Source: Chloroflexota bacterium (GTDB lineage Bacteria; Chloroflexota; Dehalococcoidia; E44-bin15). Taken from it: a stretch of 64,000 nucleotides of DNA. This document shows, piece after piece, positions 1 to 56,541 of the stretch. The stretch's first letter is position 1. Every line of letters begins with the position of its first letter. The translations under genes and the position numbers were made by a program. Below the pieces are notes generated by a model. That model had not been told where the DNA came from. It worked only from the letters and a program-made list of their open reading frames with translations, and searched no databases. The stretch is taken from assembly GCA_030604825.1 (NCBI GenBank), contig JAUVVB010000003.1, forward strand, positions 4,224 through 68,223, read 5' to 3'.

Positions 1-1962
1 GATATCTTTGAGCCCAGCGCCGAAGACCTCATGGATGCCATCTCCGATAGCCTCACCCTCGACGGCGATGTGCTGCGCGCCCTGGAGAGCCTGTTTCGGC
101 TGGGGATGCAGGGGCGCTTTGGGCAGAGGCTTCTCGGCCTTCAGGATTTGCTGGAGCAACTGCGCGCCGCCCGGAGGCAGACCCTGGAAAGATATGACCT
201 CAGTTCCATCCTCGATGAAATCCGTGACAGATTGGATCAGGTCATCAAGACTGAAAGGGAGGGCATAAACAGGCGCCTGGAGCAGGCTGAGGCCACTGGG
301 GACCAGGATCTGGTCAAGGTGGTTCAGGACCTGGCTGCCAGAAACTGCTCCTTTCTGGAAAATCTCCCCCGAGAGATCGCCGCTGCCATCAAGGAGCTGG
401 CAAGCTACGAGTTCATCGACGCTGAGGCCAGGCGACAGTTTGAAGAGCTTATGGATATGCTCAAATCGAGGGTCATGGATTCCTACTTCCGGGATATCCG
501 TCACGACCTCGAGGGCCTGACCCCGGAGGAGCTGGGGAAGCTGAGGGATATGGTGCAAAACCTCAACCGCATGCTGCGGGAGAGGATGGCAGGGCTGGAG
601 CCCGATTTTGAGGGTTTCATGCAGAGGTTTGGCCATTACTTCGGGGCAGAAAGGCCGCAAAGCCTTGATGAGCTGGTGCAGATGCTTCAGCGGAGAATGG
701 CACAGATGCAGTCCCTTCTGGATAGCCTCGCCCCGGAGCAGAGACAGGCCCTCGAGGACCTGGTGGAGTCCCTGCTTCAGGATGAGGGCCTGAGGCAGGA
801 GATAGAGGAGCTGGCAGCAAATCTGGAGCGTCTCTTCCCCATGGGGGAGCTGAGGGCTCACTACCCCTTCAGCGGCGAAGAGCCCCTATCCCTGGCGGAG
901 GCGCTGCGGCTTATGGAGGAGCTCCAGGGGATGGATGAGCTGGAAAGGCAGCTAAAGGGAAGCCGCTTTGCCCCCAAACCGGGGCAGATCGATGCCCAAA
1001 AGGTGCGCCACTTTTTGGGGGAGGAGGCATACCGCTCCCTGGAGCAACTGAGGCGAATCACCGACGTCTTGGAGGAGGCGGGTTATATTGGGAGGAAGAG
1101 CGGCAGATGGGAGCTCACCCCGAGAGGTATAAGGAAGATCGGGGAGAAGGCGCTGAGGGAGATCTTCTCCTATCTGAAGCGAGGCAGATTTGGCAGGCAT
1201 CCGGTGGCGGCCAGTGGTATGGGCGGCGACCAGGCCGATGAAACCAAGAAGTATGAATTCGGCGACCCATTTCACCTCCACATCGAGAGGACGCTGATGA
1301 GCTCCCTCCGTCGTGAGGGTCCGGGAAGCCCGCTCAAGGTAAAGCCAGAGGACTTTGAGGTTTACCAGGTGGAGTATCTCACCCAGTGCTCCACGGTGCT
1401 GATGCTCGACCTTAGCTGGTCGATGCCGGTGCGGGGTAACTTCTTTGCTGCCAAGAAGGTGGCCCTGGCCCTGGATAGCCTGATTCGAGCCCAGTTCCCC
1501 AGGGACAACCTCTATATCGTTGGCTTTTCCGATTATGCCCGGGAGATCAAAAAGGAGATGCTTCCCCATATCAACTGGAACGAGTTCGTCTATGGCACCA
1601 ACATGCATCATGGATTCATGCTTTCCCGTCAGCTTCTTTCCCGGCATAAGGGCGGGAGCAGGCAGATCATAATGGTGACCGATGGCGAGCCCACCGCCCA
1701 CCTGGAGCAGGGTCATGCCTATTTCGACTATCCGCCAAGCCCGCGCACCCTTCAGTTGACCCTCAGCGAGGCAAAGCGCTGCGCCAAGGAGGGGATCGTC
1801 ATTAACATCTTCATGCTTGATAGAGACCCCTACATCATGGAGTTCGTCGACCTGCTCACCAAGGTCAGTGGAGGTCGCGCCTTCTACACCTCCCGTGAAA
1901 ATCTGGGCCAGTATGTGGTGGTGGATTACCTGAGCCACAGGAAGAGGCGGATCACTTCATAG
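1..1962 (+). CDS. VWA (von Willebrand A) domain protein with long helical N-terminal region; 5'-partial
   Basis: Frame is open from base 1 (DIFEPSAEDLMD...). C-terminal VWA MIDAS-like motifs: LMLDLSWSM, IIMVTDGEPT. Confidence 0.85.
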   Translation, partial: DIFEPSAEDLMDAISDSLTLDGDVLRALESLFRLGMQGRFGQRLLGLQDLLEQLRAARRQTLERYDLSSILDEIRDRLDQVIKTEREGINRRLEQAEATGDQDLVKVVQDLAARNCSFLENLPREIAAAIKELASYEFIDAEARRQFEELMDMLKSRVMDSYFRDIRHDLEGLTPEELGKLRDMVQNLNRMLRERMAGLEPDFEGFMQRFGHYFGAERPQSLDELVQMLQRRMAQMQSLLDSLAPEQRQALEDLVESLLQDEGLRQEIEELAANLERLFPMGELRAHYPFSGEEPLSLAEALRLMEELQGMDELERQLKGSRFAPKPGQIDAQKVRHFLGEEAYRSLEQLRRITDVLEEAGYIGRKSGRWELTPRGIRKIGEKALREIFSYLKRGRFGRHPVAASGMGGDQADETKKYEFGDPFHLHIERTLMSSLRREGPGSPLKVKPEDFEVYQVEYLTQCSTVLMLDLSWSMPVRGNFFAAKKVALALDSLIRAQFPRDNLYIVGFSDYAREIKKEMLPHINWNEFVYGTNMHHGFMLSRQLLSRHKGGSRQIIMVTDGEPTAHLEQGHAYFDYPPSPRTLQLTLSEAKRCAKEGIVINIFMLDRDPYIMEFVDLLTKVSGGRAFYTSRENLGQYVVVDYLSHRKRRITS

Positions 1963-2398: not shown

Positions 2399-5038
2399 CT
2401 ATCCTGCCTTCTCTATTCTTACCGCAGATAGCTTTAGTTCCCCACCGGTCACCAAGTTTGCTGCGCCTTTGGCGAAATGGGCGCTCATGGACACCACCCC
2501 CGGGGGCGAAGCCTCCGTTATCCTTGCCTTTGCCTTCACCTGGCCACGGCGTGAGATGACCCTCACCCATTGGTTATCGGCGATGCCCAGATTGGCGGCA
2601 TCTGCGGGGTTCAGCTCCACCAGCTCCTCGCCCCTCAGCCTCATCAGCCCCTCCACCTTCTGGGTCATGCTGCCCAGGTGATAGAGGCTGCGCTCCGTGG
2701 TCAGCATCAGCGGATACTGCTCATCGGGAAGCTCTGCCGGCGCTTCATACTTTAAGGGGGCGAATCTGCCTCTGCCTCGGCTGAAGCCTTCAGCGTGAAG
2801 GTTCGGGGTCCCGGGATGATCCCTGGTGGGGCAGGGCCATTGAATCCCGGCTTCTGTGAGGCGCTGGTGGGAGATGCCACCATACTGGGGGACGAGGCGG
2901 GCGATCTCTTCCATGATCTGGGATGGGGAATCGAATTCGAAGCCCTCAAATCCCATCCTGCTTGCTATCTGGCAGGCGATCTGCCCATCGGGCCTGGACT
3001 CATCTATGGGCTCTATTGCCTGGCGCACCAGCTGCACCCGGCGCTCGGTGTTGGTGAAGGTCCCATCCTTCTCGGCGAAGCTCGCCGCCGGCAGAACCAG
3101 ATGGGCCAGGCGAGCGGTCTCGGTGAGGAAGATGTCCTGAACCACCAGGAACTTCGTCCGCCTCAGCGCCTTTCTCACATATCGAATATCTGCCATGTTT
3201 AGCGCCGGGTTGGCCCCGACGATATAGACGGCCTTTATCTTACCCTCAGCGGCAGCCTCGAGCATCTCAGTCAGGCTTAGCCCGGGATTGGGGTTAAGCG
3301 GATAGCCCCAGGCCCTCTCGAATTTCTCCCTGCTCTGGGGGTCTGACAGCGGTTGATAGCCGGGGAGGAAATGGGGCAAGGCACCCATGTCTGAGATGCC
3401 CTGGGCGTTATTCTGCCCTTTTAGCGGGTTCAGGCCGCTGCCCTTGCCCATGTTTCCGCTGAGCATCGCCAGGTTGGCCAGGGCAAGCACGTTCTGGGTG
3501 GCCTGGCTGTGCTGGGTGAGCCCCGAGCCGTAGAGGATGACTGCCGGTTTATGGGTAGCCAAGGTGCGTGCCGCCTCCTTCAGCAGCTCCTGGGGAACGC
3601 CGCTGATTTCCTCGGCCAGGCCCAGGTCGAAATCCCTTAAACAGTCTTGAAATTGCTCAAAATTCTGGCATCGCTCCTCGATGAAGGAAAGGTCAGCCAG
3701 GTTCTCATCCAGCATCACCCGCATCATTCCCATGAGCAGGGCGAGATCGCTTCCGGGGCGATTCCTCAGCCACAGGGTTGACAGGCGGCAAAGGTCGATC
3801 TCCCTGGGGTTTGCCAGGATAAGCTTTGCCCCTTTCCTTGCTGCCCTCCTTATCCGCTGCCCCAGTATGGGGTGGGAGGAGGTGGGGTTGGTTCCGATGG
3901 CGAGGATGCACGCCGCCCTCTCGATGTCATCCATGGAATTGGACATGGCGCCATCGCCAAAGCTGTGGCCCAGGGCTTCCAGCGAGGGGGCATCGCAGAG
4001 GCGGGAGTCGCTGTCGATATCGTTACTTCCCATGGCCACGCGGGCAAATTTCTGCAGGATATAGCCATCCTCATTGGTTCCCTTGGCCGAGGCAATGAGG
4101 GCAAATTCCTCGCCCCTATATTTGGCGAATTCCGTTGCCATGAGATCGATGGCCTGCTCCCATGATATCTGCGAAAAGGTTCTCCCCCTCTTGACCAGGG
4201 GTGAGGTGAGCCGATCCCGGTGGTGAACGAAATCGGCGATGCCAAAGCGCCCCTTGGCACAAAGGGTACCCTTATTTGTGGCGTTCTCCTCATCGCCGCG
4301 CACCCCGACGATGGTGCCCTCATCCAGCCCCAGGTATATGCCGCAGCCAACGGCGCAGTAGGGGCAGATGGTCTTCACCTCCTCCTTGGGCCACCTCAGG
4401 TCCTTCTCCACCAGGGCAGCAACGGGGCAGATGGCGACGCACTCCCCGCAGGACTCGCACCTTTCATCTATCACCGGCTGGACATCGAAGGGGCGGAGCG
4501 TGGTTTCAAAGCCGCGGAAGGTGAAGTCGATGGCATTGGCGCCCACGATTTCGCTGCACACCGAGACGCATTTCCCGCAGACGACGCACTTATTGGGGTC
4601 GCGGATGAAGAAGGGGTTGCTGGCATCTACCGGAAGCGCCTTGGGGGTGGGCCTGAGGCGCTTTGGCTTCAGCTTAACCCCAACGAAGGCGGCGATCCGC
4701 TGCAGCTCACAGTGGCGATTCTTGGCGCATGCCCCGCAATCGGGGCACTCGGCGGCGATCAAAAGCTCGGCGGCAGTGCGGCGCAGCCTCCTGACCTGGG
4801 GGGTATCAGTATGAACCACCAACCCCTCGGCCACGGGCTCGGTGCATGAGGTCACCGGATCGGCCCTTCCTTCCACCTCCACGAAGCAAAGCCGGCAGCC
4901 GGCATGGGGCTCCTCCGCCCAGCGCAGGGCACAAAGGTTGGGGATGTAGATGCCATTATCCAGCGCCGCCCACAGGATTTTTTCGCCCTTGGGCGCTTTG
5001 ATGGTAATGCCATCTATGATCAGATCGACCGTATCCAT
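2399..5038 (-). CDS. Formate dehydrogenase alpha-like molybdopterin oxidoreductase with N-terminal NuoG/HydA-type Fe-S domains; atypical active site
   Basis: [2Fe-2S] motif (LC...GCRLC...SC), 2x[4Fe-4S] (CVVCGKCVSVC, CESCGECVAICP), CPYCAVGC...C, and Mo-bisPGD motifs (FAEKDGTFTNTERRVQ). Active-site loop RLCDAPS; KGQNN. Confidence 0.9.
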   Translation of the reverse strand: MDTVDLIIDGITIKAPKGEKILWAALDNGIYIPNLCALRWAEEPHAGCRLCFVEVEGRADPVTSCTEPVAEGLVVHTDTPQVRRLRRTAAELLIAAECPDCGACAKNRHCELQRIAAFVGVKLKPKRLRPTPKALPVDASNPFFIRDPNKCVVCGKCVSVCSEIVGANAIDFTFRGFETTLRPFDVQPVIDERCESCGECVAICPVAALVEKDLRWPKEEVKTICPYCAVGCGIYLGLDEGTIVGVRGDEENATNKGTLCAKGRFGIADFVHHRDRLTSPLVKRGRTFSQISWEQAIDLMATEFAKYRGEEFALIASAKGTNEDGYILQKFARVAMGSNDIDSDSRLCDAPSLEALGHSFGDGAMSNSMDDIERAACILAIGTNPTSSHPILGQRIRRAARKGAKLILANPREIDLCRLSTLWLRNRPGSDLALLMGMMRVMLDENLADLSFIEERCQNFEQFQDCLRDFDLGLAEEISGVPQELLKEAARTLATHKPAVILYGSGLTQHSQATQNVLALANLAMLSGNMGKGSGLNPLKGQNNAQGISDMGALPHFLPGYQPLSDPQSREKFERAWGYPLNPNPGLSLTEMLEAAAEGKIKAVYIVGANPALNMADIRYVRKALRRTKFLVVQDIFLTETARLAHLVLPAASFAEKDGTFTNTERRVQLVRQAIEPIDESRPDGQIACQIASRMGFEGFEFDSPSQIMEEIARLVPQYGGISHQRLTEAGIQWPCPTRDHPGTPNLHAEGFSRGRGRFAPLKYEAPAELPDEQYPLMLTTERSLYHLGSMTQKVEGLMRLRGEELVELNPADAANLGIADNQWVRVISRRGQVKAKARITEASPPGVVSMSAHFAKGAANLVTGGELKLSAVRIEKAG

Positions 5039-6954
5039 TATTTCTTCGAAGGGGGAACCAAACTCTTGGGCGATAGCCTTATTATGGCATCGTATTGAGG
5101 GGGGCAGGCTTCAAGGCAGGTTCCGCACTTGACGCACTTTTCCTGATCAATGATCTTTATCCCCCTCTTTCCGGTAGATATCGCCTCCACGGAACAGCTC
5201 CCCACACAGGCATCGCACGAGCGCTCGCATTTCTCGGGGATGATGTAGTAGGCGGTGAGCTCCTTACAGTAATGCGCTGGGCAGCGCCCCTCCTTTATAT
5301 GGACTTCATATTCATCGCGGAAATAACGGATGGTGGTGAGGATGGGGTTTGGCGCCGTCTTCCCCAGGCCGCAGAGGGCCCCTTTTTTCACATCTTGGCC
5401 CAGTTCTATCAGGAGGTCTATATCCTCTATCTTGCCCTTGCCCTTAGTGATATCCTCAAGGACATCTAGCATCTGCCTTGTCCCCAATCGGCACATGGTG
5501 CACTTGCCGCAGGATTCTCGCTGGGTGAACTCCAGGAAATAGCGGGCGGCGTCGACCATGCAGTTGTCCTCGTCCATGACTACCATTCCCCCCGAGCCCA
5601 TCATCGCCCCGACATCGGTGAGGGAATCGAAATCGATGGCGGTATCCAGCAGGCTTTCGGGGAGGCAGCCGCCGGAGGGCCCGCCGATCTGCACCGCCTT
5701 AAACCGCTTCCCTTTAGGGATCCCGCCGCCAACCTCGAAGATGAGCTGGCGCAGCGAGGTGCCCATGGGCACCTCAACGAGGCCGGTGTTCAGTACCTTC
5801 CCGGCCAGGGCGAATACCGCAGTTCCCCTGCTCTGCTCCGTGCCCAGGGAGGCAAACCATGGCGCACCCCGATGGATGATCTGGGGAACGCTGGCCAGGG
5901 TCTTAACGTTATTGATCAGGGTTGGCTTTCCCCACAGGCCGTGGGTGGCTGGATAGGGAGGGCGATGCCGAGGCATCCCCCTCCTTCCCTCCATGGACCG
6001 GATCATCGCCGTCTCCTCGCCGCAGACAAAGGCGCCGGAACCCCTCATTACCTCAGCGTGAAAGCTGAAGTCGCTGCCCAGAATATCATCGCCCAGTAAC
6101 CCCAAATCCTGGGCTTGCTTCAGGGCGGTTCGGGCGCGCTCCACCGCCAGGGGGTACTCCATTCGAACGTAGATATAGCCCTTTGCTGCCCCCACTGCAT
6201 AGCCAGCGATGATCATCCCCTCGATGACTGATTGAGGTTCGCTCTCCAGGATGGCTCGGTCCATGAAGGCGCCGGGGTCGCCCTCGTCGGCATTGCAGAT
6301 CACGTATTTTGGCTCTCCCGCCGCCTGGCGACATATCTGCCACTTCTCTCCCGTGGGGAAGCCAGCGCCACCACGCCCCCTGAGCCCTGACCTTTTGACC
6401 TCCTCAATAACCCCCTCCCTCCCCATCGCCAGTGCCTTGGCCAGCCCGCCATAGCCCCCGTTGGCGATATATTGGTAGATGTCCTCGGGGTCGATATAAC
6501 CGCAGTTTTTTAGCAGGACGCGGGTCTCATATTTGAACCTGGGCTGATCGAAGATACTGGGGATGAGCTCGTTTTCCTCCAGGGCACCCAGGGCAAATTC
6601 CAGGCAGGGGTCATCGCCCAGCAGGAAGTCCTGCACCAGCCGGGAGGCAATCCCGGGGGTCACATAGCCGTAGCAAATGGGGGGGTAGCCTGGCTTTTCT
6701 ATGATCACCAGCGGCTCGGCGTAGCAATAACCCATGCAGCCAACCTGGGTTAGCTTGGCCTCAACCTTATGCCTCTCCAGCTCATCGTGGAGGGTTTTCA
6801 CCACATCCAGAGCCCCGGCTGCCCTGCCGCAGGTGGCGGTGCCAACCAGGAGGTGAGGCCTTTTGCCGTCTTTAAGCGCTTCCCACCGTTTAAGGGCTTG
6901 GCCCCTGATCTCCTCGAAGGCCTGCCATATCCGCCCCTTAGCCTTATCGGTCAC
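5038..6954 (-). CDS. NuoF/HydB-like NADH/FMN-binding beta subunit
   Basis: GLRGRGGAGFP, NADEGDPGAFMDR, GAFVCGEET, GGPSGGC, ESCGKCTMCRLG, C-terminal ferredoxin-like domain, N-terminal thioredoxin-like [2Fe-2S] domain. Confidence 0.95.
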   Translation of the reverse strand: MTDKAKGRIWQAFEEIRGQALKRWEALKDGKRPHLLVGTATCGRAAGALDVVKTLHDELERHKVEAKLTQVGCMGYCYAEPLVIIEKPGYPPICYGYVTPGIASRLVQDFLLGDDPCLEFALGALEENELIPSIFDQPRFKYETRVLLKNCGYIDPEDIYQYIANGGYGGLAKALAMGREGVIEEVKRSGLRGRGGAGFPTGEKWQICRQAAGEPKYVICNADEGDPGAFMDRAILESEPQSVIEGMIIAGYAVGAAKGYIYVRMEYPLAVERARTALKQAQDLGLLGDDILGSDFSFHAEVMRGSGAFVCGEETAMIRSMEGRRGMPRHRPPYPATHGLWGKPTLINNVKTLASVPQIIHRGAPWFASLGTEQSRGTAVFALAGKVLNTGLVEVPMGTSLRQLIFEVGGGIPKGKRFKAVQIGGPSGGCLPESLLDTAIDFDSLTDVGAMMGSGGMVVMDEDNCMVDAARYFLEFTQRESCGKCTMCRLGTRQMLDVLEDITKGKGKIEDIDLLIELGQDVKKGALCGLGKTAPNPILTTIRYFRDEYEVHIKEGRCPAHYCKELTAYYIIPEKCERSCDACVGSCSVEAISTGKRGIKIIDQEKCVKCGTCLEACPPQYDAIIRLSPKSLVPPSKK

Positions 6955-7487
6955 TTGCTATTTTCCTCGCCCTTTTCTTTCTCCAGCTCGAAGGATAGCA
7001 GTATGCCGTCCACCCTGGTGGGCGAAACCCTGCCCTGAACCTCCTCGTCAACTACGCTCACCGGGGCCATGGCGCAGCAGCCCACACAGGCCACTCGTTC
7101 CAGACTGACCTGGCGATCTGGGGTGGTTTGCCCCGGTTTGATGCCCAGCCGCCTTTCCCAGGCCTCCAGGATGTTCACCCCGCCCTTCATATGGCAGGCA
7201 GTTCCCAGGCAAACCTTTACCGGGTGCTTTCCCGGCGGGTTAAGCCGAAATTGATTATAGAAGGTGGCCACACCCAGGACCTCGATCTCCGTGATCCGCA
7301 TAAATTTGGCGATCTCCTTGATCGCCTCCCTGGGTAGATAACCAAACCTGGCCTGAATCTCTTGCAGAATGGGGATCAGCTTTCCCCTTTCCCCACCATG
7401 CCCCCTCAGTATTTCCCGTGTCTGCCTTATTCGCTCCTCTTCATCCGTCACCGATATGCCTGACCTCGCCTGAATCAATCTGTCCAA
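6951..7487 (-). CDS. NuoE/HydC-like [2Fe-2S] subunit
   Basis: VCLGTACHMKG and VACVGCCAMAP motifs; its stop overlaps the start of the beta subunit. Confidence 0.93.
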   Translation of the reverse strand: MDRLIQARSGISVTDEEERIRQTREILRGHGGERGKLIPILQEIQARFGYLPREAIKEIAKFMRITEIEVLGVATFYNQFRLNPPGKHPVKVCLGTACHMKGGVNILEAWERRLGIKPGQTTPDRQVSLERVACVGCCAMAPVSVVDEEVQGRVSPTRVDGILLSFELEKEKGEENSK

Positions 7488-7587
7488 TTATAACATAATA
7501 AAGGTGACTAATAGAAATGAGAGGTGCTGGACAAAGGGGGGGCAGCGGTGTAATCTGGTTTGTCGAGGGATTAAGAGGAGGTCAACA

Positions 7588-8715
7588 ATGAACTTCGAGA
7601 TCACCGCCGAGCAGAGGGAGTTGAGGCGGGAGGTGGCGGAGCTTGCACGGAGATTTCAGCCCAGGATTGATGAGTGGGAGGCAAAGAGCATTGCCCCCAG
7701 GGAGCTATTTGAGGAGCTGGGCCGGAGGCGCTGGATGGGGCCCATCGTCCCCCCACAGTACGATGGGATGGGCAAAGGGGCTATGGAATACTGTATCATC
7801 AGCGAGGAGCTGGCCAGGTTTGGGCTCTTTGGCCCCCAGCCCACCATTCAGGCGGAGAAGCACCTCCTTGCCTCGGGAAGCGAGGAACAGAAACAAAGCT
7901 ATCTTCCCATGCTGGCCAGGGGGGAAGGGATAGCGGCCATTGCCATCTCCGAGCCCATGGTGGGCTCCAGCTTCGAGCTAATGGAGACCACGGCGCTCAA
8001 AAGGGAAGGGGGCTATGTGCTCAACGGGCGTAAGTCCCACATCAACTTTGCCGCCGATGCCGCCATAATCCTGCTCTATGCCAAAAGCGAAAGGGGCCTC
8101 TCCATCTTCATCGTTGAAAGGGGAACGCCGGGCATCAGGTTCGAGAAGGGAGACCCCATCGGGCAGAGGATGCAGCCCATCTACGATTTCACCCTGGAGG
8201 ATGTTCGGATTCCCCAGAACCAGCTATTGGGCGAAGAGGGCGATGGCATGAGCACCTTTTTCGCCAGCTTCAACCTGAGCCGCATCGGGAATGCCTCATG
8301 CCTCATCGGGCTGGCCAGAGGTGCGCTGGAGGAGGCCATCGATTATGCCAAGCAGAGAAGGGTGGGAGGAAACCTGGTAACCGATTTCCAGGGCATCCGC
8401 TGGATGGTAGCCGAGCTGGTGACCAGGATCGAGGCGGCAACCCTGCTCAGGGACAAGGCGGCATGGCTGGAGGATCGGGGGGTGGAGCACGCCCTGGAGA
8501 CGGCCATGGCCAGGTACTATGCTGCCGAGGTGGCGGAGGAGGCCTGTTCCCAGGTCTTCTCCCTGGTGGGAGGCTGGGGTTGCCGCCGGGAGAGGCCCTT
8601 TGAACGCTTCTGGCGGGACGCCAAGGTGGGCAAGCTGGCCGGCGGCTCCTCCGAGGTGCTCAAGAACCTCATCGCCAGGCGGGTGCTGGGCAAGGAGGGA
8701 GCTCCATTATCTTGA
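7588..8715 (+). CDS. Acyl-CoA dehydrogenase
   Basis: AISEPMVGS, LNGRKSHI, RVGGNLVTDFQGI, GGSSEV motifs; GAGGAG RBS before the ATG at 7588. Confidence 0.92.
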   Translation: MNFEITAEQRELRREVAELARRFQPRIDEWEAKSIAPRELFEELGRRRWMGPIVPPQYDGMGKGAMEYCIISEELARFGLFGPQPTIQAEKHLLASGSEEQKQSYLPMLARGEGIAAIAISEPMVGSSFELMETTALKREGGYVLNGRKSHINFAADAAIILLYAKSERGLSIFIVERGTPGIRFEKGDPIGQRMQPIYDFTLEDVRIPQNQLLGEEGDGMSTFFASFNLSRIGNASCLIGLARGALEEAIDYAKQRRVGGNLVTDFQGIRWMVAELVTRIEAATLLRDKAAWLEDRGVEHALETAMARYYAAEVAEEACSQVFSLVGGWGCRRERPFERFWRDAKVGKLAGGSSEVLKNLIARRVLGKEGAPLS

Positions 8716-8740
8716 CGTTGCCCCATCGCCTTGCTACAAT
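8712..8740 (+). promoter_or_regulatory. sigma70-type promoter for thiolase/DUF35
   Basis: TTGACG-17 nt-TACAAT. Confidence 0.6.
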
Positions 8741-8773
8741 CGCCATCGTCTCAATAGAATCTTTGGAGGGGAA

Positions 8774-10045
8774 ATGATCAAAAAAGCTCGTAAGTTAGGA
8801 AGGGGGGTTGCTATAGTAGGCGCTGGAATGAGCAAATTCGGCACCTTCAGGGGAATGTCCGGTCGGGACCTGGTGGTGGAGGCCTTCAAGGAGATGAGGG
8901 CCTCCGTTGATAAGGGCTTCGACCCCAATGACATTGAGGCCTTATATGTAGGTAACCTTTCCAGCGACCTCTTCGAGGGGCAAGCCCATACTGCCCCCAT
9001 CATTGCCGACTGGCTGGGGATGATCCCCAAGCCGGCGACCAGGATCGAGGATGCCTGCGCCTCCAGCGGCGTTGCGCTCAGGGAGGGTATCATCGCCATC
9101 GCCTCCGGGCTTTATGACATCGTTCTGGTGGCTGGGGTGGAGAAGATGACCGACCTGCCCACGGAGAGGGTTACCGATACCCTGGCAGCCGCCGCCGATG
9201 CCATCTATGAGCTGCCCGCAGGCTTCACCTTCCCCGGGCTCTACGCCGCCATCGCCACCGCCCACATGAAGAAGTACGGGACCAAGATAGAGCACTTCAT
9301 GAAGGTGGCGATAAAAAATCACGATAATGGGGCGCTAAACCCCAAGGCCCAGTTCAATAGCTCCATCAGGGACATCATGGCCAGCCGCATGAAGAAGGCC
9401 GAGGAGCGGGGGCAGCCCGTTCCCGCCTGGAGGGATGAGATGGACTTCCTCAACGACCCCCAGGCTAATCCCATCATCGCCTGGCCGATGAGGCTGTTCG
9501 ATTGCTCCCCCATCACCGATGGTGCTGCCTGCATTCTGCTGGCGGCGGAGGAGATAGCCAAAAACTTCACCGACAATCCCATCTACATCATCGGCGCTGG
9601 TCAGGCAAGCGATGTCGCCCTTCATCAGCGGGAGGACCTCACCTCGATAACGGCGGCGAAGGTAGCTGCCCAGCAGGCCTATGAAATGGCGGGCGTTAAG
9701 CCTCAGGACATCCAGATAGCCGAGGTTCACGATTGCTTTACCATCGCCGAGATAGTGGCCACCGAGGACCTGGGCTTCTTCAACCCTGGCGAGGCGCCCA
9801 AGGCTGTGGAGGATGGAATTATGGCCAGGGACGGAGCCAAGCCCATCAACACCTCCGGCGGGCTCAAATCCAAGGGGCACCCGGTGGGGGCATCGGGTGC
9901 TGGCCAGGTGGTGGAGATTTGGAGCCAGATGAGGGGGGAGGCGGGAGCGCGCCAGGTCCGGGGCAAGGACATCACCCTGGCCCTGACCCACAATGTAGGT
10001 GCCACCGGCGGCACCTGCGTAGTTCATATCTATGAAAGGCGGTGA
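8774..10045 (+). CDS. SCP2/archaeal-type thiolase (acetyl-CoA acetyltransferase family)
   Basis: EDACASSG, EVHDCF, SKGHPVGASG, THNVG; GGAGGG RBS. Confidence 0.92.
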   Translation: MIKKARKLGRGVAIVGAGMSKFGTFRGMSGRDLVVEAFKEMRASVDKGFDPNDIEALYVGNLSSDLFEGQAHTAPIIADWLGMIPKPATRIEDACASSGVALREGIIAIASGLYDIVLVAGVEKMTDLPTERVTDTLAAAADAIYELPAGFTFPGLYAAIATAHMKKYGTKIEHFMKVAIKNHDNGALNPKAQFNSSIRDIMASRMKKAEERGQPVPAWRDEMDFLNDPQANPIIAWPMRLFDCSPITDGAACILLAAEEIAKNFTDNPIYIIGAGQASDVALHQREDLTSITAAKVAAQQAYEMAGVKPQDIQIAEVHDCFTIAEIVATEDLGFFNPGEAPKAVEDGIMARDGAKPINTSGGLKSKGHPVGASGAGQVVEIWSQMRGEAGARQVRGKDITLALTHNVGATGGTCVVHIYERR

Positions 10046-10463
10046 ATCGGTGGAACAGAGAGAATTTAGCGGCGCTTCCTTTTACCAGTTTCTAGGTGAA
10101 GGGAAGCTCATGGCTTCGAGGTGCAAAAAATGCGGCACCCTGTATCTGCCTCCCAAGCCCCTTTGCACCAGGTGCTATAGCAATGAGATGGAGTGGGCGC
10201 AGATGAAGGGGAAGGGAAAGCTGGCTGCCTTTACCACCATCGCTGTGGCCCCCACGCTGATGATGGAGGAGGGCTATGGCCGGGATAATCCCTACTGCAC
10301 CGGCGTGGTGGAGCTGGAGGAGGGCCCCAAGATCAGCGCCCGCATCCTGGGGGTGGACGCCAAGAAGCCCGAGGAAATCGAGGTTGGCACCCCGCTCACC
10401 GTGGAGTTTGTGGAGCGGGGTGAAGGCGAGCAGAAGAAGACGTTTCTGGCGTTCAGGGCGTAA
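10032..10463 (+). CDS. DUF35-type Zn-ribbon/OB-fold protein, thiolase partner
   Basis: CKKC...CTRC Zn ribbon plus OB fold (VVELEEGPKISARI); overlaps the thiolase end. Confidence 0.9.
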   Translation: MKGGESVEQREFSGASFYQFLGEGKLMASRCKKCGTLYLPPKPLCTRCYSNEMEWAQMKGKGKLAAFTTIAVAPTLMMEEGYGRDNPYCTGVVELEEGPKISARILGVDAKKPEEIEVGTPLTVEFVERGEGEQKKTFLAFRA

Positions 10464-10497
10464 TAGATAGCTTTCTGGCGAAAAAAGGAGGTGAGAG

Positions 10498-10827
10498 ATG
10501 GAAGCTGATAGGCTTCGTGGAGTGGCAGTGTCCTGCTTCGGGCTGATTCTTCTAACGGGCGCCATTCTGGTCCTGGTCTTCGTTCCCTCGTGGGGGCGAT
10601 GGGTGGCAGCATACCCGGCGCAGATAGCCGAATTGCCGTTCCCCCCCGAGGCAACCCCGATTGTTATGGGCCTCACCGCAATAATTGGCCCGCTCCTGGA
10701 GCAAATAGGTGGCTATATCCAGGCGGTGGGCTATTTCATCGGCAGCCTGCTGACGATCGTAGCAATAGGGCTAACCTCTATTGGCTTTTCTTTGGCAAGA
10801 GGGCAAGCCTCTAAACATCTGGAATGA
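10498..10827 (+). CDS. Hypothetical membrane protein
   Basis: AAGGAGG RBS; 2-3 hydrophobic segments. Confidence 0.65.
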   Translation: MEADRLRGVAVSCFGLILLTGAILVLVFVPSWGRWVAAYPAQIAELPFPPEATPIVMGLTAIIGPLLEQIGGYIQAVGYFIGSLLTIVAIGLTSIGFSLARGQASKHLE

Positions 10828-10913
10828 CGGAACTTCAAGGTGAGGATTCTTTTCGACTTACGAAAATCATGTAGCCCCGCTAGTGATTCTTATGGTGAAA
10901 GGAGAAGACTACA

Positions 10914-11393
10914 GTGACGAAAAACATTGTGATCGCAGTATTGGCCGTGGTACTGGTAGCTGCCATTGGTGTATGTGTCTATCTTGGTATTGCACTTTCT
11001 GATGCACGGTCTGAAAACGCCTCGCTACAGTCTGAATATGCCTCGCTACAGTCTGAATATGCCTCGCTAGAGTCTGAATATGAGAGCCATCAAGTCACGG
11101 TGGCGGATGTAGCCGCAAAGGCTGATCTCTACCTTGCCGTCGCCCGACTCAGGTGGCAGGACTCGGCGGAGTCTCCTTATTGGATGACGGATTGGGAATA
11201 CAAAAGGCACAGAGACCAGGTCTTGCGAGCTACCAACGATGGGCGCCTAATAGATGCAGCAGATACATGGTGGCATAGCGGGCCGGAGTCGGAAGAGTGG
11301 GATAACTGGCAGTACACTAGGGCACTAATCGAGGGTTTGGCTGAGACCCTGGATGATATCGGCTGTGAAGATTGGACATGGGTAACTGAATAG
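10914..11393 (+). CDS. Hypothetical membrane-anchored coiled-coil protein
   Basis: AAGGAG RBS, GTG start, N-terminal TM helix, heptad repeats SE(N/Y)ASL(Q/E). Confidence 0.65.
   Translation: MTKNIVIAVLAVVLVAAIGVCVYLGIALSDARSENASLQSEYASLQSEYASLESEYESHQVTVADVAAKADLYLAVARLRWQDSAESPYWMTDWEYKRHRDQVLRATNDGRLIDAADTWWHSGPESEEWDNWQYTRALIEGLAETLDDIGCEDWTWVTE
11010..11082 (+). repeat. In-frame 21-bp tandem repeat (~3.5 copies)
   Basis: tctgaaaacgcctcgctacag / tctgaatatgcctcgctacag / tctgaatatgcctcgctagag / tctgaatatg. Confidence 0.9.
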
Positions 11394-11584
11394 CAGCTCC
11401 AGGCACGGCTTGACAGACCAGGGAAGTTTGCCTACCCTACCCCTGCAGGAGTTCGTATATGGCCCTCGTTCCCTTCAAATCGTTCCCTCATAGAGGGACC
11501 TCGCTAGTCGGGCACAGAGCCCGGCTCGATAAACTACCAAGAATGTCTGCTGGTTTCAGTGCTGTCGGCTCACGGAGGTGCTGA

Positions 11585-11956
11585 ATGAAAGCAACCTACA
11601 AATCGAGGAGGAATTGGTCGCTTATCTTCTGGGGGGCAGCAGCAGTAATAGGGTGGGTCTTTGGCATTGCGAGCGATGCCAGTTGGCAGGCGGGGAGCTA
11701 TGGTGCTAGCGATTTCATGCTCGCTCTCAATCTCATCTTCTTCATTGCTGCTACAGTAGCGGTCTTTATGGCCTGCTACTACTGGGCAAGATACAAGGGG
11801 CGAAGCGGATGGTTCACCCTGTGCGGGCTGGTTGCCCCCCTGGGGTTCCTCATCCTCACCTTCATGGAGGACCAGTGGAAGGAGGGGCCGCCGCCAACAG
11901 ACGAGCTGCCCCAACCTCCCCCCTATATCGTGGCTGGCGGCCCGCCAAAGATATAA
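11585..11956 (+). CDS. Hypothetical membrane protein with Pro-rich tail
   Basis: GGAGG RBS; three hydrophobic segments; KGRSGW loop. Confidence 0.65.
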   Translation: MKATYKSRRNWSLIFWGAAAVIGWVFGIASDASWQAGSYGASDFMLALNLIFFIAATVAVFMACYYWARYKGRSGWFTLCGLVAPLGFLILTFMEDQWKEGPPPTDELPQPPPYIVAGGPPKI

Positions 11957-12078
11957 ATTGAGTAGGGAGAACTGTGAAATGAAGGGCGGGTAATGTCACT
12001 AATAAACAGCATTGACCTGTAGCCAGTTCCGCACCTAGCGTATCACCTTGCCCGAATGCATGTGCGGAGGTGAAAAGA

Positions 12079-12465
12079 ATGGAGCGGGATGCCAATGAGA
12101 TTGAGCAGGCGGAACTATAGGAGGAGGACGCGATAAGGGAGGTATATACTTTTGCCGCCGAAAGGTTGTCTGAAGGAGCATCTGAACAGCAGGTGTTTGA
12201 AGAGCTGAAGGAAAAGGGTGTGCCAGATGATGCGGCTATGGTCATTACGCGTGATGCGTGCAGTATCAGGGCAGCGGCTCGAAGGCGAAGCGGGCTGAAG
12301 GGTATCGGCTGTGGATTCCTCATGCTGGCAGTGGGGGGCATCATCACAGGGGTTACGTATGCTGCTGCGGCGGGAGGTGGATACTACATAATAACCATTG
12401 GTCTTTTTATAGCAGGTGCAATAGCTATCCTTACTGGCTTATGGAGACTTATCACTGCAAGATAA
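12079..12465 (+). pseudogene. Membrane protein ORF interrupted by an in-frame TAG (12118-12120)
   Basis: GGAGGTG RBS and ATG at 12079 are in frame with the 12166-12465 ORF; there is a single TAG at codon 14. Confidence 0.55.
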
Positions 12466-12509
12466 AGCAGAAAAGGGTGCCTATGAACTGCGCTTAAGGT
12501 AGAAAGGGG

Positions 12510-12728
12510 GTGAGCTACATGAGAACGATGTTGCTGTTTGCGGGGGGGCTAGCGGCGGTGGCAGCAGTGTTCAGTATGATTTCCCTACTTATTTGGTGGG
12601 TAGACTGGGCACAGTATGGGCAGTTTGAGCTACCAGTGGTATACGGCACATTAGACGGCTTTTGCGTCATTCTGATATATGGAGCCATAGCCATTGCTGC
12701 AATCGCCCTAGCTAGACGGGAATCATAG
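12510..12728 (+). CDS. Small hypothetical membrane protein
   Basis: AAAGGGG RBS; two hydrophobic segments. Confidence 0.55.
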   Translation: MSYMRTMLLFAGGLAAVAAVFSMISLLIWWVDWAQYGQFELPVVYGTLDGFCVILIYGAIAIAAIALARRES

Positions 12729-12737
12729 GAAGATAAG

Positions 12738-12845
12738 ATGGATGAGAAGCAATTAAGGCAGTTAGTAGCGGCACTCGAAAAAATCGCTAGGGAGCTGGAT
12801 GCGATTCATCGTGCCCTGGTGAACATTAGTGGTCGGCTACGCTAG
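12738..12845 (+). CDS. Putative 35-aa amphipathic peptide
   Basis: MDEKQLRQLVAALEKIARELDAIHRALVNISGRLR*; AGGAAG upstream; directly follows the preceding ORF. Confidence 0.4.
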   Translation: MDEKQLRQLVAALEKIARELDAIHRALVNISGRLR

Positions 12846-12910
12846 GCAAATGTCTAGGAACCCCGCCAGGACTACGAGGGCACAAGGCCCACTTGCCTGC
12901 TGAGTGTTGG

Positions 12911-13019
12911 ACCCCACCGCCACCGCAAAGGGTCTGTAGCCCCCACCTCAGGTTGTGGCGCACCATCCAGTGAACCATCTCGGTGAGATAGAGAACGCCG
13001 CTACAGCCAATGGGATGCC
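12911..13019 (-). repeat. Diverged 109-bp copy of the thiolase 3' coding region (13086-13194)
   Basis: 8 mismatches in 109 bp; 7 are synonymous in the thiolase frame and 1 is F>L. Confidence 0.9.
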
Positions 13020-13051
13020 TTTTTTTGAAGCGGATTTAGAGATGCCTTTTT

Positions 13052-14293
13052 CTATGTCTCCCTCTCCACAATGGTGGCAATCCCCACCCCACCGCCGCCG
13101 CAAAGCGTCTGGAGCCCCCACCTCAGGTTGTGGCGCACCATCCAGTGGACCATCTCGGTGAAATAGAGGACGCCGCTGCAGCCGATGGGATGCCCAAGGG
13201 CTATCGCCCCTCCGCTGGGATTTATCCTGGGGTCGTCATAGGCGACCCCGAACTCCTGGCAGAAGGCAAGCACTGGCGAGGCGAAGGCCTCGTTGGGCTC
13301 CCAGACCTCGATGTCATTGAAGGTAACGCCGGCGCGCGCCAGCGCCTTCTTCATCGCCGGAATGGGGCCGAGGAGCATGATTATCGGGTCATCGCCGGCC
13401 ACCGCCATCGACCTTATGGTCACCATGGGCTCAAGTCCCAGCTCCTCCGCCTTCTCCCTTGACATCAGCATGGTGGCTGCCGCCCCATCGACGATGCCCG
13501 AGGAATTCGCCGCCGTTACCTTGCCCTCTTTCTTAAACCTGGGCTCCAGCTCCTTCATCTTCTCATAGGCAGCCTCGGGGTCGTCCAGGGCTATAGCGCG
13601 AGGAGGCTCATCCTTATCCACCACTATTGTGGGTTCACCCTCCCGCTCGATCCTGACGGGCACGATCCTCTTCTTATACCACTCGTCATCCCTGAGTGCC
13701 TTCACCGCCTTCTGCTGGCTCCACAGGCCGAACCTGTCCATGTCCTCCCGGGACTGATTGTATTTTTCGCCAACCATCTCGGCGGCAACACCCATCAGCA
13801 CCAGCCCCCTTTTTACTACGTTGGGGTGAAAGGAAATCGGATAGCCACTCTTTTGCGCCGCCTCAAAGTCGGACATCATAGGGTAATGGGACATATTCTC
13901 CACCCCGGCGGCGATCATGATGTCGCCACAGCCGCACATAATTGCCTGAGCCTGAGAGTTGATCGCCTGAAGCCCAGCATTGCAGTAGCGGTTGATGGAC
14001 CAGCCGGCAACCTCATCGGGAAGCCCAGCGGCTATGACACCCATCCTGCCGATATTCATCCCCTGCTCTCCAATCTGGCTCAGGCACCCCACGGCCGCAT
14101 CCTCGATCTCAGCGGGGTTGAAGCGGGGGCACTTTGCTTTCACCCGCTCTACCAACCCCTCCAGGGCTGCGGCGATGAGATGCTGAGCGGAAACGTCGCA
14201 GAAGGCCCCCTTCTTCTCCATCCCCTTCCATCCCGACCTCCCGGTAGGGGTGCGCACTGCCTCGACAACCACTGCCTCTCTCAGTTCCTTCAT
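13052..14293 (-). CDS. Thiolase (acetyl-CoA C-acyltransferase)
   Basis: NRYCNAG, NEAFA, GGAIALGHPIGCSG, TLCGGGG catalytic motifs. Confidence 0.93.
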   Translation of the reverse strand: MKELREAVVVEAVRTPTGRSGWKGMEKKGAFCDVSAQHLIAAALEGLVERVKAKCPRFNPAEIEDAAVGCLSQIGEQGMNIGRMGVIAAGLPDEVAGWSINRYCNAGLQAINSQAQAIMCGCGDIMIAAGVENMSHYPMMSDFEAAQKSGYPISFHPNVVKRGLVLMGVAAEMVGEKYNQSREDMDRFGLWSQQKAVKALRDDEWYKKRIVPVRIEREGEPTIVVDKDEPPRAIALDDPEAAYEKMKELEPRFKKEGKVTAANSSGIVDGAAATMLMSREKAEELGLEPMVTIRSMAVAGDDPIIMLLGPIPAMKKALARAGVTFNDIEVWEPNEAFASPVLAFCQEFGVAYDDPRINPSGGAIALGHPIGCSGVLYFTEMVHWMVRHNLRWGLQTLCGGGGVGIATIVERET

Positions 14294-14296
14294 ATT

Positions 14297-15328
14297 TCAC
14301 CTCACGATTTTCTGGGGAAGCCTCTGGATGATCTCCTCTGCCTCCCTGATTATTTGGTCGATGAGCTCCTTTACTGTGGGGATATCCTCGATCCTGCCCG
14401 CTACCTCCCCGCAGAGCACGGCGCCCCCCTCCACATCCCCCTCGTAGATCAGGGCATACTTCTCCAGGTCCTCCCTGAGCTTCTCCAGGTCGGCAAACAT
14501 CTCCTTCTCCTGGGTGACCCTGGCCTCCTTGTCCACCGGCTTGGGGGCGGAGAGGGAATATTTGTTCTTGAGCAGCCTTATCGGGCCAAAGGCCCCTTGA
14601 ACTATGGTGGTATCGGTATCAGTCGAGCGGACGATGAAGTCCTTATAGTTTTGGTGGAACTCGCAGTCCCTGGTGGCAATGAACCTGGTTCCCATCTGAA
14701 TGCCAATAGCCCCCATCGTCAGGGAGGCTGCCAGTCCCGTGCCATCGCAGATGCCGCCACTGGCAATCACCGGTATCTTCAGCGCCTTCACCACCTCGGG
14801 GACCAGGACCACGGTGTTCACCTGCTCATAGGATTGGTGCCCTCCTCCCTCGTATCCGGTGGCGATGACGCCATCGCATCCCGCCGCTTCCACCCTCCTG
14901 GCGTGGTAGAGGGAGGGGGCGACGTGGAAATGGAGAAGCCCGGGGGATTTTCTTATCTCCTCTGCCGGTCGGCGGGGATCACCGGCGGAGGTGATGACCA
15001 GCTTGAGCCGCCTTTTTACCTCTGTGTCCCTCTCCCTGGCCTCAACGACCTCCTTGAGCACTGCTGGGGCATCGATCTGAATCCGGGCCACGCGGATATT
15101 CACCCCAAAGTTCCCCTCAGTATGCTCCATCAGGTACTGGATGGATTCCTTCATCTTCTCCGCCGGGTTGATGGGGGGCTCGGTTCCCACCCCCCAGTGG
15201 CTGATGATGCCAAAGGCTCCGGCATTGGAGACCGCAGCCGCCAGTTGCGCCGTGTCAAAGGGCCCCATCCCTGCCTGGATTATGGGGTGTTCTATGCCCA
15301 GCATTTCACAGAGTTCCGTCTTTATCAT
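14297..15328 (-). CDS. Nitronate monooxygenase / FabK-like FMN enzyme
   Basis: LGIEHPIIQAGM, GYEGGGH, PVIASGGI, QMGTRF; AAGGAGG RBS before the ATG at 15328. Confidence 0.88.
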   Translation of the reverse strand: MIKTELCEMLGIEHPIIQAGMGPFDTAQLAAAVSNAGAFGIISHWGVGTEPPINPAEKMKESIQYLMEHTEGNFGVNIRVARIQIDAPAVLKEVVEARERDTEVKRRLKLVITSAGDPRRPAEEIRKSPGLLHFHVAPSLYHARRVEAAGCDGVIATGYEGGGHQSYEQVNTVVLVPEVVKALKIPVIASGGICDGTGLAASLTMGAIGIQMGTRFIATRDCEFHQNYKDFIVRSTDTDTTIVQGAFGPIRLLKNKYSLSAPKPVDKEARVTQEKEMFADLEKLREDLEKYALIYEGDVEGGAVLCGEVAGRIEDIPTVKELIDQIIREAEEIIQRLPQKIVR

Positions 15329-15501
15329 GTTTTCCTCCTTGAAGACCGATCTATTGCTTCGATGATGAGAACCAAAGCCCAGCGACATTTTAGCTCCAAA
15401 ACGCCCTGTTGAAAAGCCCCCTGGAATATAGGCCTCGGTTGCCGAAAAGGGGTCCATGGTTTATATTAGTGCTGATCTTTTGGCAACCTTAAAGGGATAG
15501 A

Positions 15502-16758
15502 TTGTCAGCGCTTTTCCCCAGGGCAAGGTTTTACGGTTGGATAGCACTAGCAGGGGCAATGCTAGTGTATTTTTGTGGCTGTGGAACCGTATTCTACGCC
15601 TACGGCGTTTTCGTGCCTTCAATAATTGGGGAGTATGGCTGGTCCAGCACGGTGGTCTCGGGGGCGTTCTCCCTGTTCTTCCTTCTCGGTGGTCTTGCCG
15701 GCCCCCTCATCGGAGCCTCCATCGTCAGGTTCGGGCCGAGGGTTAATATCATCATCGGGAATGCCCTCGCCGCTTTCGGCCTAGCAGGCCTGTATTTTGC
15801 CACCCAGCCCTGGCACCTTTACCTATTTTTCGGGGTGCTGGTGGGGCTGGGTATTGGTTTCGGGCTGTTCGCCGCCACCACCGCGGTAGCCAACAACTGG
15901 TTCATCAGAAGAAGGTCGCTGGCGATGGCGCTTACCGTTGCCTCCGGTGGCCTAGGCGGCCTCGCCTTTCCCCCGTTGATCGCTTTGCTCATCAGCGCCA
16001 CCGGGTGGCATGCCGCCTGGTTGGTTTTGGCTGCCATCCAACTGGTGCTGGCGGTGGTGGTCGGTGGGGTGCTCCTCATCAGGGATAGGCCGGAGGACCT
16101 GGGGCAGTTGCCCGATGGCATGGCTGCCGGGGTGGTTTTGGACAGAGCGGCGCCATCGCCGGTTTACCACACGCCGGTGGATTGGGACGCGAAACAGGCG
16201 ATGAGGAGGCGCACCACCTGGCTGCTGGTTATCCTGGGTGCGGCCAACATCTTCGCCCTCAACATGATGACGGTGCACCAGGTGAAATATCTGGTGGATA
16301 TCGAGATCGACCCCGTGGTAGCAGCCACCGCTTTCGGCCTTCTTCCCGGGATGAGCATCCTGGGACGGCTTGGCTTTGGCGCACTGGCAGGAAGGATTGA
16401 GCCCAGATATTTGGCCACCATCTGTCTCGCCATACAGGCGGTGGCGGTGATCATCCTCATGAATGCCACTTCCCTGCCCCTGGTCTACCTCTATTCCGTG
16501 CTCTTCGGGATATGCTATGGGGGATTAATACTGGCTCACCCGACCATGATCGGGGCCTATTATGGACGAGCCCACTATGCCCAGATATTGGGCTGGCTAC
16601 TTCCCATAGTCACCGTCATTGGTGCCATTGCTGCCCCCTTGGCTGGCGCCGTTCATGACGCTACCAATACCTACACCCTTGCCTTTGTGGTGGTAATTGC
16701 CTTCTGCGCCCTGGGAGCGGTTTGTGCCTTTTGGGCCCGACCCCCAAAGCCACAATGA
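15502..16758 (+). CDS. MFS transporter (OFA/monocarboxylate-like)
   Basis: About 12 hydrophobic segments; GASIVRFGPR and WFIRRRSLA MFS motifs. Confidence 0.9.
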   Translation: MSALFPRARFYGWIALAGAMLVYFCGCGTVFYAYGVFVPSIIGEYGWSSTVVSGAFSLFFLLGGLAGPLIGASIVRFGPRVNIIIGNALAAFGLAGLYFATQPWHLYLFFGVLVGLGIGFGLFAATTAVANNWFIRRRSLAMALTVASGGLGGLAFPPLIALLISATGWHAAWLVLAAIQLVLAVVVGGVLLIRDRPEDLGQLPDGMAAGVVLDRAAPSPVYHTPVDWDAKQAMRRRTTWLLVILGAANIFALNMMTVHQVKYLVDIEIDPVVAATAFGLLPGMSILGRLGFGALAGRIEPRYLATICLAIQAVAVIILMNATSLPLVYLYSVLFGICYGGLILAHPTMIGAYYGRAHYAQILGWLLPIVTVIGAIAAPLAGAVHDATNTYTLAFVVVIAFCALGAVCAFWARPPKPQ

Positions 16759-16789
16759 GCTAGCATGATATAATAGCCCAGCGGGCATT

Positions 16790-17584: not shown

Positions 17585-17587
17585 CGC

Positions 17588-18553: not shown

Positions 18554-18630
18554 TTTTACCCTCCGCAAAGACCTTGATGGCAAAGCATACCAGCAATGAG
18601 GGGCGAGGTCAAGAATTAAAGAAATCTTCA

Positions 18631-18659
18631 TTGACATCTTCCCTACTTCCTCCTATAAT
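18631..18659 (+). promoter_or_regulatory. Perfect sigma70 consensus promoter
   Basis: TTGACA-17 nt-TATAAT upstream of the acyl-CoA dehydrogenase. Confidence 0.75.
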
Positions 18660-18705
18660 CGGCGCAGACGGGTTCCGGCGCGGGGCCAGCTAAGGGGGGA
18701 TTAAA

Positions 18706-51660: not shown

Positions 51661-51886
51661 TGGATTTTTGCCCTCTAGAACAGCGCAGCCGCTCTGCTCA
51701 CCCCAAGGGTAACAGTCATGCCACCTGCCCTTTCACCGTTTCTTCCCTACAGAACTTCAGGCTCGCTGCCTGACGCCCGGCAAGGGTTCTGCCATATGCG
51801 CTCCTCCAGGTTTTCCTTGACAGTGAAAAGGGGCGGTGATATAGTTTATCCCAGGAAAATGACCCTGGTTTCCACATGGAGGGAGG

Positions 51887-53629: not shown

Positions 53630-53716
53630 GTCGCTGGGGACAGGGGGCTACCTCGATTGTGGGGAGATCTGGGCATCTGCCCCTCTTTGTTTGCCCAATA
53701 AAAAGGAGGAGCTCTG

Positions 53717-54124: not shown

Positions 54125-54148
54125 GCGGATTTGGAGGTTTCACCGATA

Positions 54149-55123: not shown

Positions 55124-55147
55124 CCTTAAACTTCGATAGGAGGAGAA

Positions 55148-56521: not shown

Positions 56522-56541
56522 GATACCAACAGGAGGATGAT

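Follow-up and report, generated by a model that had tools for sequence, protein, structure and literature searches.

Can a protein in which both formate-specific residues of the active site are replaced still act as a formate dehydrogenase (FDH), and what else could such a protein do? This question is raised by bfuA, an FDH alpha subunit-like gene and the last of three genes in an operon at positions 2399-7487 (minus strand) of a 64,000 nt stretch of DNA (the window in the following) from a Chloroflexota bacterium. The window corresponds to positions C28:4224-68223 of a 1.37-Mb metagenome-assembled genome (MAG) that is 91% complete, and the closest relatives of this genome are labelled Chloroflexota or Dehalococcoidia. 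With moderate confidence, we favour the view that BfuA is an FDH-derived iron-sulfur (FeS) wire and scaffold, which would no longer turn over formate and would be part of an NADH/ferredoxin-linked complex.

BfuA is clearly related to the alpha subunits of FDHs. A phmmer comparison to FdsA of Rhodobacter capsulatus (RcFdsA; PDB 6tg9_A) gave an E value of 1.6e-204, and Pfam domains follow the order N-terminal 2Fe-2S, NuoG-type FeS, 2x[4Fe-4S] ferredoxin, Molybdop_Fe4S4, Molybdopterin (MopB) and Molydop_binding. In an AlphaFold2 (AF2) model of BfuA the similarity score TMq was 0.90-0.92 for FdsA-type FDHs and 0.74 for NuoG. This cofactor-free model (37 aligned sequences, mean predicted local distance difference test (pLDDT) value of 77) was used for the overall fold only, and details were not interpreted in its low-confidence regions, namely the active-site loops 345-348 and 541-560 and the deletion region 855-868. 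The metal ligand Cys348, the cysteines of the FS0 cluster (C225, C228, C232, C260) and K262 are all present. What BfuA lacks is the His following the ligand, which is Asp349, and the Arg of the RGQNN loop, which is Lys540. Both replacements had been noticed in a preliminary description of this DNA, and the alignment to 6tg9_A bears them out: the motif SRL-C-D-APS lies opposite Cys386-His387 of RcFdsA, and NPL-K-GQNN aligns to NPL-R-GQNN, which contains Arg587. According to FDH reviews these His and Arg residues are conserved in all FDH active sites and have roles in substrate binding and proton transfer (PMC13397495). It was also predicted that automated pipelines would call such a protein an FDH, and this is indeed the case. 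BfuA scores 738.6 bits with TIGR01591 (Fdh-alpha; cut-off 666.25), and members of its clade carry the Joint Genome Institute (JGI) name "formate dehydrogenase alpha subunit".

We used two sets of homologues, the best 120 from 5.8 billion proteins and, out of 1.84 billion proteins clustered at 50% identity, the best 150 cluster representatives. The canonical combination of Cys-His and Arg (C-H/R) is found in 102 of the 120 best homologues. The group closest to the window protein (P0001) consists of the database sequences P0005-P0013, P0015 and P0035 with 67-74% identity. Asp is present in all 14 members of the closest subclade, which comprises database sequences together with L006 (labelled "Chloroflexota") and L018 (from the family of the window genome), and Lys occupies the position of Lys540 in all but two of them. 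The refuting possibility of errors unique to this assembly can thus be set aside, since 12 database clusters and the species genomes L006 and L018 have the same Asp (with Lys). Among 301 Dehalococcoidia species genomes the C-D/K combination was found in one further genome only (G276). Phylogeny and co-variation had been proposed as checks. In a maximum-likelihood tree a branch with SH-aLRT support of 100 separates all 15 sequences lacking the Arg (K, Q and L types) from 103 canonical sequences, among them a second FDH of the same genome; Asp is always paired with K or R. When the cluster representatives were included in the tree, the clade had 17 members, none of them canonical. Across the clade the position of the FDH Arg is taken by K, Q, L, M or G, with P0009 and P0010 as exceptions, and P0126 (VA/M) and P0130 (CG/G) are fully degenerate. 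As judged from these sequences, the substitutions are a lineage trait and not errors, and the lineage is monophyletic and mostly composed of Chloroflexota.

Loss of the FDH active site as such is already known and common, and the window protein is a new, mild case of it. Since at most 61 of the 150 representatives retain Cys-His and Arg (57 confirmed at both sites, four truncated), degenerate FDH-like proteins must be regarded as common, and the tree of the representatives requires at least seven independent changes of the active-site state. A canonical C-H/R homologue with about 60% identity is present in another genome of the window's family (L020, G289); its reading frame contains an in-frame TAG, and it may be a pseudogene or be affected by a sequencing error.

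The ligand position itself varies within the closest subclade: Cys is retained by P0001, P0005, P0011 and L018 only, and of the other members six have Arg and four have Tyr. Across the clade the residues equivalent to FdhF-Lys44 are K,K,R,R,H,K,K,K,N,N,N,K. The GQNN loop is found as RESN, GDNN or GENN, E609 of the GENP motif is replaced by A, D or T throughout the clade, and the change of M505 to S is shared as well. In contrast, all 19 FeS cysteines are kept across the clade, apart from one exception in one sequence. As Arg and Tyr are tolerated at the ligand position together with the same operon, and the Arg of the loop is lost, the function shared by the clade cannot depend on this site. 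The relative rates of divergence point in the same direction. With N-terminal identity matched, the MopB domain of the clade has clearly diverged further than that of canonical FDHs (0.59 in the clade versus 0.74 in canonical FDHs, 0.68 versus 0.78, and 0.74 versus 0.83). In canonical FDHs the MopB domain evolves more slowly than the FeS domain, and in the clade this order is reversed. We also considered the number of changed invariant columns as evidence for decay, but dismissed it, since P0001 has changes in 18% of these columns compared to 26-30% in distant true FDHs (L002-L005); the comparison between domains was kept instead.

The preliminary description had further proposed that the C-terminal cofactor domain is trimmed. 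This is borne out in part. Both gaps are real, and they are of unequal status. The gap of two residues (TTERSLYHL--GSMT) is common to the entire non-canonical clade, and the gap of nine residues (NLVTGG---------ELK, loss of ...LDPxSKxP) occurs in the window protein only. The FeS wire is not entirely unchanged either: whereas 100 of 102 canonical relatives have a His ligand at the N5-type cluster, the D clade has Glu at this position (Asp for L018), and Tyr is found in the other non-canonical members. The change to Glu97 affects the wire itself and may shift the potential of this cluster.

The partner subunits indicate the type of complex to which BfuA would belong. BfuB has a NuoF core that carries the flavin mononucleotide (FMN)/NADH site, preceded by a thioredoxin-like domain and followed by a ferredoxin domain of the 2x[4Fe-4S] type. 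Over its residues 32-618, BfuB can be aligned from end to end with the bifurcating B subunit 7t2r_B (A. mobile NiFe-HydB) with an E value of 9e-222, and the other best PDB matches are 9n5u_B (NfnB), 9bov_B, 7q4v_B (HydB) and 8oh5_B (StnB). For the non-bifurcating proteins FdsB (6tg9_B, 1.5e-107) and NuoF (about 1e-107) only the core was matched. In the N-terminal site of BfuB (window 6700-6860, residues ~32-85) three of the four cysteines of A. mobile HydB are present (GTATCGRAAG...GCMGYC compared to CRGTGC...GCHGMC), which resembles the Nfn-Bfu enzymes with Zn at that position. The operon combines, in genes encoded together, several features of Bfu enzymes: a HydB-type BfuB, a NuoE-like BfuC, and a BfuA with a chain of 2Fe-2S and 4Fe-4S clusters. 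Because BfuB matches bifurcating B subunits far better than FdsB or NuoF, the operon is assigned by sequence to the Type 1 "Fdh-Bfu" (Schut et al. 2022, PMC9304861), from which its altered formate site sets it apart. The only candidate for a third-substrate site is this altered MopB site, and the operon loci that were read share no further catalytic gene. As the formate-site residues of BfuA are replaced, formate is not assumed as the third substrate, and a third substrate may be absent altogether.

In the operon, the nuoE-like gene is followed by the hydB-like gene and the fdhA-like gene; the first two overlap by 4 nt, and the stop codon of the hydB-like gene overlaps the start codon of the fdhA-like gene by 1 nt, which suggests that all three are translationally coupled. 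In every locus of the clade with a visible upstream region the fdhA-like gene comes after NuoE-like and HydB-like genes, which are fused to a single gene in the Q-type loci L001 and L019. Table 1 lists the features of the operon.

Table 1. Features of the operon and of BfuA. Positions refer to the window; residue numbers refer to BfuA.
Feature	Position	Strand	Basis or remark
bfuC, nuoE-like subunit, 178 aa, thioredoxin-like [2Fe-2S]	6951..7487	-	PF01257 E 8.6e-49; NuoE NF005722 148 bits, cut-off 141
bfuB, hydB-type NuoF-like flavoprotein, 638 aa	5038..6954	-	PF01512, PF10589, SLBB and Fer4 domains
bfuA, fdhA-like subunit, 879 aa	2399..5038	-	Open reading frame (ORF), Pfam, TIGR01591, PDB match to FdsA
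bfuA NuoG-type FeS domain, residues 1-215	4394-5038	-	
bfuA MopB (pterin-type) domain, residues 216-879		-	
Cys348-Asp349, position of the FDH C/U-H metal-ligand dipeptide	3992..3997	-	Cys348 3995-3997, Asp349 3992-3994
Lys540 (AAA), substrate-binding Arg in FDHs (FdhF Arg333 / RcFdsA Arg587)	3419..3421	-	
Lys262, equivalent of FdhF Lys44, between FS0 cluster and pterin	4253..4255	-	Kept in the window protein
Glu97, replacing the His ligand of the N5-type [4Fe-4S] cluster (HxxxCxxCxxxxxC to ExxxC...)	4748..4750	-	
9-residue in-frame deletion junction, Gly866/Glu867, C-terminal cap loop (...LDPxSKxP)	2438..2443	-	
2-residue deletion junction (canonical LYxFHTGTMT to LYHL--GSMT)	2672..2677	-	
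Acyl-CoA dehydrogenase (ACAD), divergent to the operon	7504..8715	+	Pfam ACAD domains; true start likely near 7585

Taken together, these data are best explained if the operon encodes a Bfu-type (HydABC-like) flavin/iron-sulfur complex of BfuC, BfuB and the FDH alpha-derived BfuA, in which BfuA would have given up formate/CO2 catalysis. BfuA would link the BfuBC core, which would react with NADH and ferredoxin, to a further redox partner, similar to NuoG or to the dead FdhF-like domain in StnC/NfnA. There are precedents for both: the FdhF-like domain of StnC is described as "catalytically inactive" (PMC10482914), and conservation is lost in the C-terminus of NuoG (PMC3144371). The preliminary description had suggested that BfuA acts on another substrate or is a cofactor-less electron-transfer module. 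Loss of formate catalysis is favoured by the loss of the Arg in the clade (with the two exceptions named above), the change from His to Asp, and the variable Cys ligand and Lys44 equivalent in sister proteins. Of the two options the cofactor-independent electron-transfer module is favoured. The C-D/K proteins, in which Cys, Lys262 and GQNN are retained, may nevertheless act on another substrate.

Two candidates for the redox partner emerge from the genome. The first is a Nuo complex encoded at C14:~51200-61360 by an operon for 11 subunits (A, B, C, D, H(I), J, K, L, M, N), in which no nuoE, nuoF or nuoG was found; NuoH and NuoI apparently lie within one long open frame. Apart from those of the window operon, no NuoE or NuoF homologue is present in the 91%-complete MAG. 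Docking of the operon product onto this Nuo complex lacking EFG is an attractive possibility. A Nuo-Bfu complex has been predicted (PMC9304861), and a separate nuoEFG operon next to an 11-subunit Nuo has been reported for marine Chloroflexi (PMC5736913). The second candidate would be a flavoenzyme from the acyl-CoA neighbourhood of the operon, such as the ACAD or an NMO-family protein. The idea that the ACAD feeds the Bfu complex for want of an electron-transferring flavoprotein (ETF) was rejected, as EtfAB is encoded on contig C6.

Several observations weigh against this interpretation. Both partners are candidates only, and the operon does not adjoin nuo. The window protein retains the Cys ligand, Lys262 and GQNN as well as most motifs of the pterin domain (GTNPTSSHP, VVQDIFLTETA, FTNTERRVQ), it exceeds the curated FDH cut-off of TIGR01591, and P0001 keeps 82% of the MopB columns in which canonical proteins do not vary, compared to 70-74% in distant true FDHs. 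The invariance of Asp349 (14/14), always together with K or R, looks like constraint rather than free drift, and Asp349 and its basic partner could represent a remodelled working site. A salt bridge that fills the former substrate pocket would fit this pair, and a remodelled working site would fit it equally. The shared and retained changes (E609 to A, D or T, M505 to S, and the 2-aa deletion) also fit a functional shift. By its sequence, the window protein is mildly degenerate and among the least degenerate members of the clade, with the private deletion in the cap loop in addition. It may therefore carry out residual or new pterin chemistry.

The foremost alternative is a neofunctionalised molybdo- or tungsto-enzyme, a reading that we regard as possible, if doubtful. 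At least the C-D/K members would bind the W/Mo-bis(pyranopterin guanine dinucleotide) cofactor (W/Mo-bisPGD) via Cys348, or via Asp349 as in NarG-type enzymes, and would act on a third substrate other than formate in the remodelled Asp/Lys pocket. Such proteins would constitute a new functional type among the Bfu enzymes, possibly connected with the neighbouring genes of acyl-CoA metabolism. Retention of Cys348, Lys262 and GQNN in P0001, P0005, P0011 and L018 argues for such a function, as do the invariant Asp with its basic partner, the substitutions conserved across the clade and the fully FDH-like fold of the AF2 model. An orthologous ACAD gene (76-82% identity) is divergent to the operon in three of the four loci with a visible upstream region (window, L014, L049), and NMO-family genes are found near the operon: in L012 and L013 they lie a short way downstream, and in the window 9-13 kb separate them from the fdhA-like gene. 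It is also known that exchange of the same His and Arg in RcFDH, together with an added Arg, resulted in nitrate-reductase activity (PMC10385643). However, the operon and the length of the protein are also kept in close relatives whose ligand position is taken by Arg or Tyr and whose Lys44 position is taken by N or H, the pterin domain diverges relatively faster, and the window protein has its extra deletion in the cap loop. Moreover, no maturation gene of the fdhD or mobA type adjoins the operon in the loci that were read.

A further-reaching view, which we consider unlikely, would see the C-D/K proteins as a living intermediate on the way from FDH to NuoG, with the operon as a detachable Bfu-type module that would feed electrons of NADH and ferredoxin into the 11-subunit Nuo; or else W/Mo-bisPGD and the Asp/Lys pocket would serve a new Bfu substrate linked to acyl-CoA oxidation.

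Quite unlikely, in our view, is that BfuA is still a formate dehydrogenase or CO2 reductase with altered kinetics, in which Lys would bind formate and Asp would act as proton relay or as partner of the Cys. The score above the TIGR01591 cut-off, the FDHs as closest solved structures and the positive charge kept by Lys fit this proposal, and the major facilitator superfamily (MFS) transporter encoded directly downstream in the Q-type sister loci could be an organic-anion carrier. Against it stands the conservation of His and Arg in all FDH active sites (PMC13397495), both of which are kept in 102 of 102 canonical neighbours, together with the tolerated loss of the Cys ligand in the clade. In addition, an intact second FDH is encoded elsewhere in the genome (C29:20442-24539), a single chain of 1365 aa with the motifs RLCHAPS and PLRGQNN, which is likely the real formate dehydrogenase of the organism. 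In this protein a GltD/NfnB-like NADPH module is inserted after the 2Fe-2S domain, and NfnA-like and GltD-like genes precede it. A decaying pseudogene or assembly artefact, to which the private 9-residue deletion seen in the assembly only might point, is highly implausible in view of the intact 879-aa ORF that is coupled to hydB, the complete set of FeS cysteines, the same substitutions in independent full-length assemblies with 59-74% identity, and the full FdsA fold of the AF2 model.

Several known systems are close to the window operon. One of them is the NAD+-dependent FdsABG (R. capsulatus 6tg9; R. aestuarii 9ktl), which has the same order of 2Fe-2S, NuoG-type FeS, FS0 and MopB in its alpha subunit and also NuoE-like and NuoF-like partner subunits. 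BfuA differs from it by the replacement of His387 by Asp and of Arg587 by Lys and by the two deletions in the cap domain, and the window flavoprotein is of the long HydB/Bfu type, whereas FdsB is short. The Type 1 Fdh-Bfu (BfuABC, with the pterin site in BfuA), which was predicted in Carboxydothermus hydrogenoformans (PMC9304861), has the same three-subunit architecture and is the type to which the nearest canonical relatives of BfuA belong (55-60% identity); its formate-site residues are replaced in the window protein.

StnC/NfnA of the Stn (Nfn-Bfu) transhydrogenase (8oh5, 9bov, 9n5u) has a catalytically inactive FDH-like domain that carries FeS clusters and acts as a scaffold for a bifurcating core of the HydBC type. 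It contains a GltD-type catalytic module for NADPH and flavin adenine dinucleotide (FAD) and a truncated FDH-like part, while BfuA has no such module and a full-length MopB domain. Identity of BfuA with StnC/NfnA was ruled out, as Pfam revealed no GltD/NfnB-like NADPH-FAD module in it; in this genome that module sits in the FDH on C29. NuoG/Nqo3, the 75-kDa subunit of complex I, is also related to FDHs, has no formate activity and provides the electron path between NuoEF and the other parts of complex I. BfuA is closer to true FDHs (TMq 0.9 versus 0.74), is encoded outside the nuo operon and has a flavoprotein of the Bfu type. NuoG itself was excluded by scores far below the cut-offs (TIGR01973, 298 versus 470; PRK07860, 324 versus 802) and by the location of the nuo operon on C14. 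Finally, the FDH-like protein DET0187 of the complex iron-sulfur molybdoenzyme (CISM)/OmeA type from Dehalococcoides is an FDH homologue from the same bacterial class that was proposed to act as a link in electron transfer, and thereby a further precedent for a wire; it was reported to be without FDH activity (PMC5736913). Unlike BfuA, it is not a NuoEF-linked protein of the FdsA type.

The surroundings of the operon differ between the loci. In the window, positions 7504-19899 form a dense acyl-CoA neighbourhood with the ACAD, an SCP-x type thiolase, a DUF35/ChsH2-like OB protein, a second thiolase, two NMO/FabK-like FMN enzymes, an MFS transporter, an enoyl-CoA hydratase and another ACAD. The Q-type sister loci L001, L019 and L048 (C-H/Q) show the order DUF5343, NuoE-NuoF (fused in L001), FdhA-like and MFS transporter, and HdrD-like (CCG) and HdrA-like genes are found further on in L001. 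Downstream of the window operon, an ORF for 643 aa (31-1962, plus strand) has a sub-threshold VWA_2 as its sole match. The small ORF at 2010-2570 is probably not part of the system, as it had no Pfam or NCBIfam match and no homologue in any of the fetched loci.

The main value of these findings is a warning for annotation together with a snapshot of stepwise active-site loss. Genes of the clade pass a curated FDH model and bear "formate dehydrogenase" names, and therefore reconstructions of marine-sediment Dehalococcoidia may over-count NADH/ferredoxin-linked formate or CO2 metabolism. With regard to evolution, the clade shows that the Arg was lost first and the His next, followed by the Cys ligand together with the wiring Lys, and that the FeS wire remained intact throughout. 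This is the stepwise route that is assumed for the origins of NuoG and of the StnC/NfnA scaffold. With regard to physiology, the operon encodes the sole Bfu/NuoEF core of this genome, which also codes for an 11-subunit Nuo and has about 20 ACAD paralogues, and identification of the partner of this core would help to explain the NADH/ferredoxin balance in these organisms.

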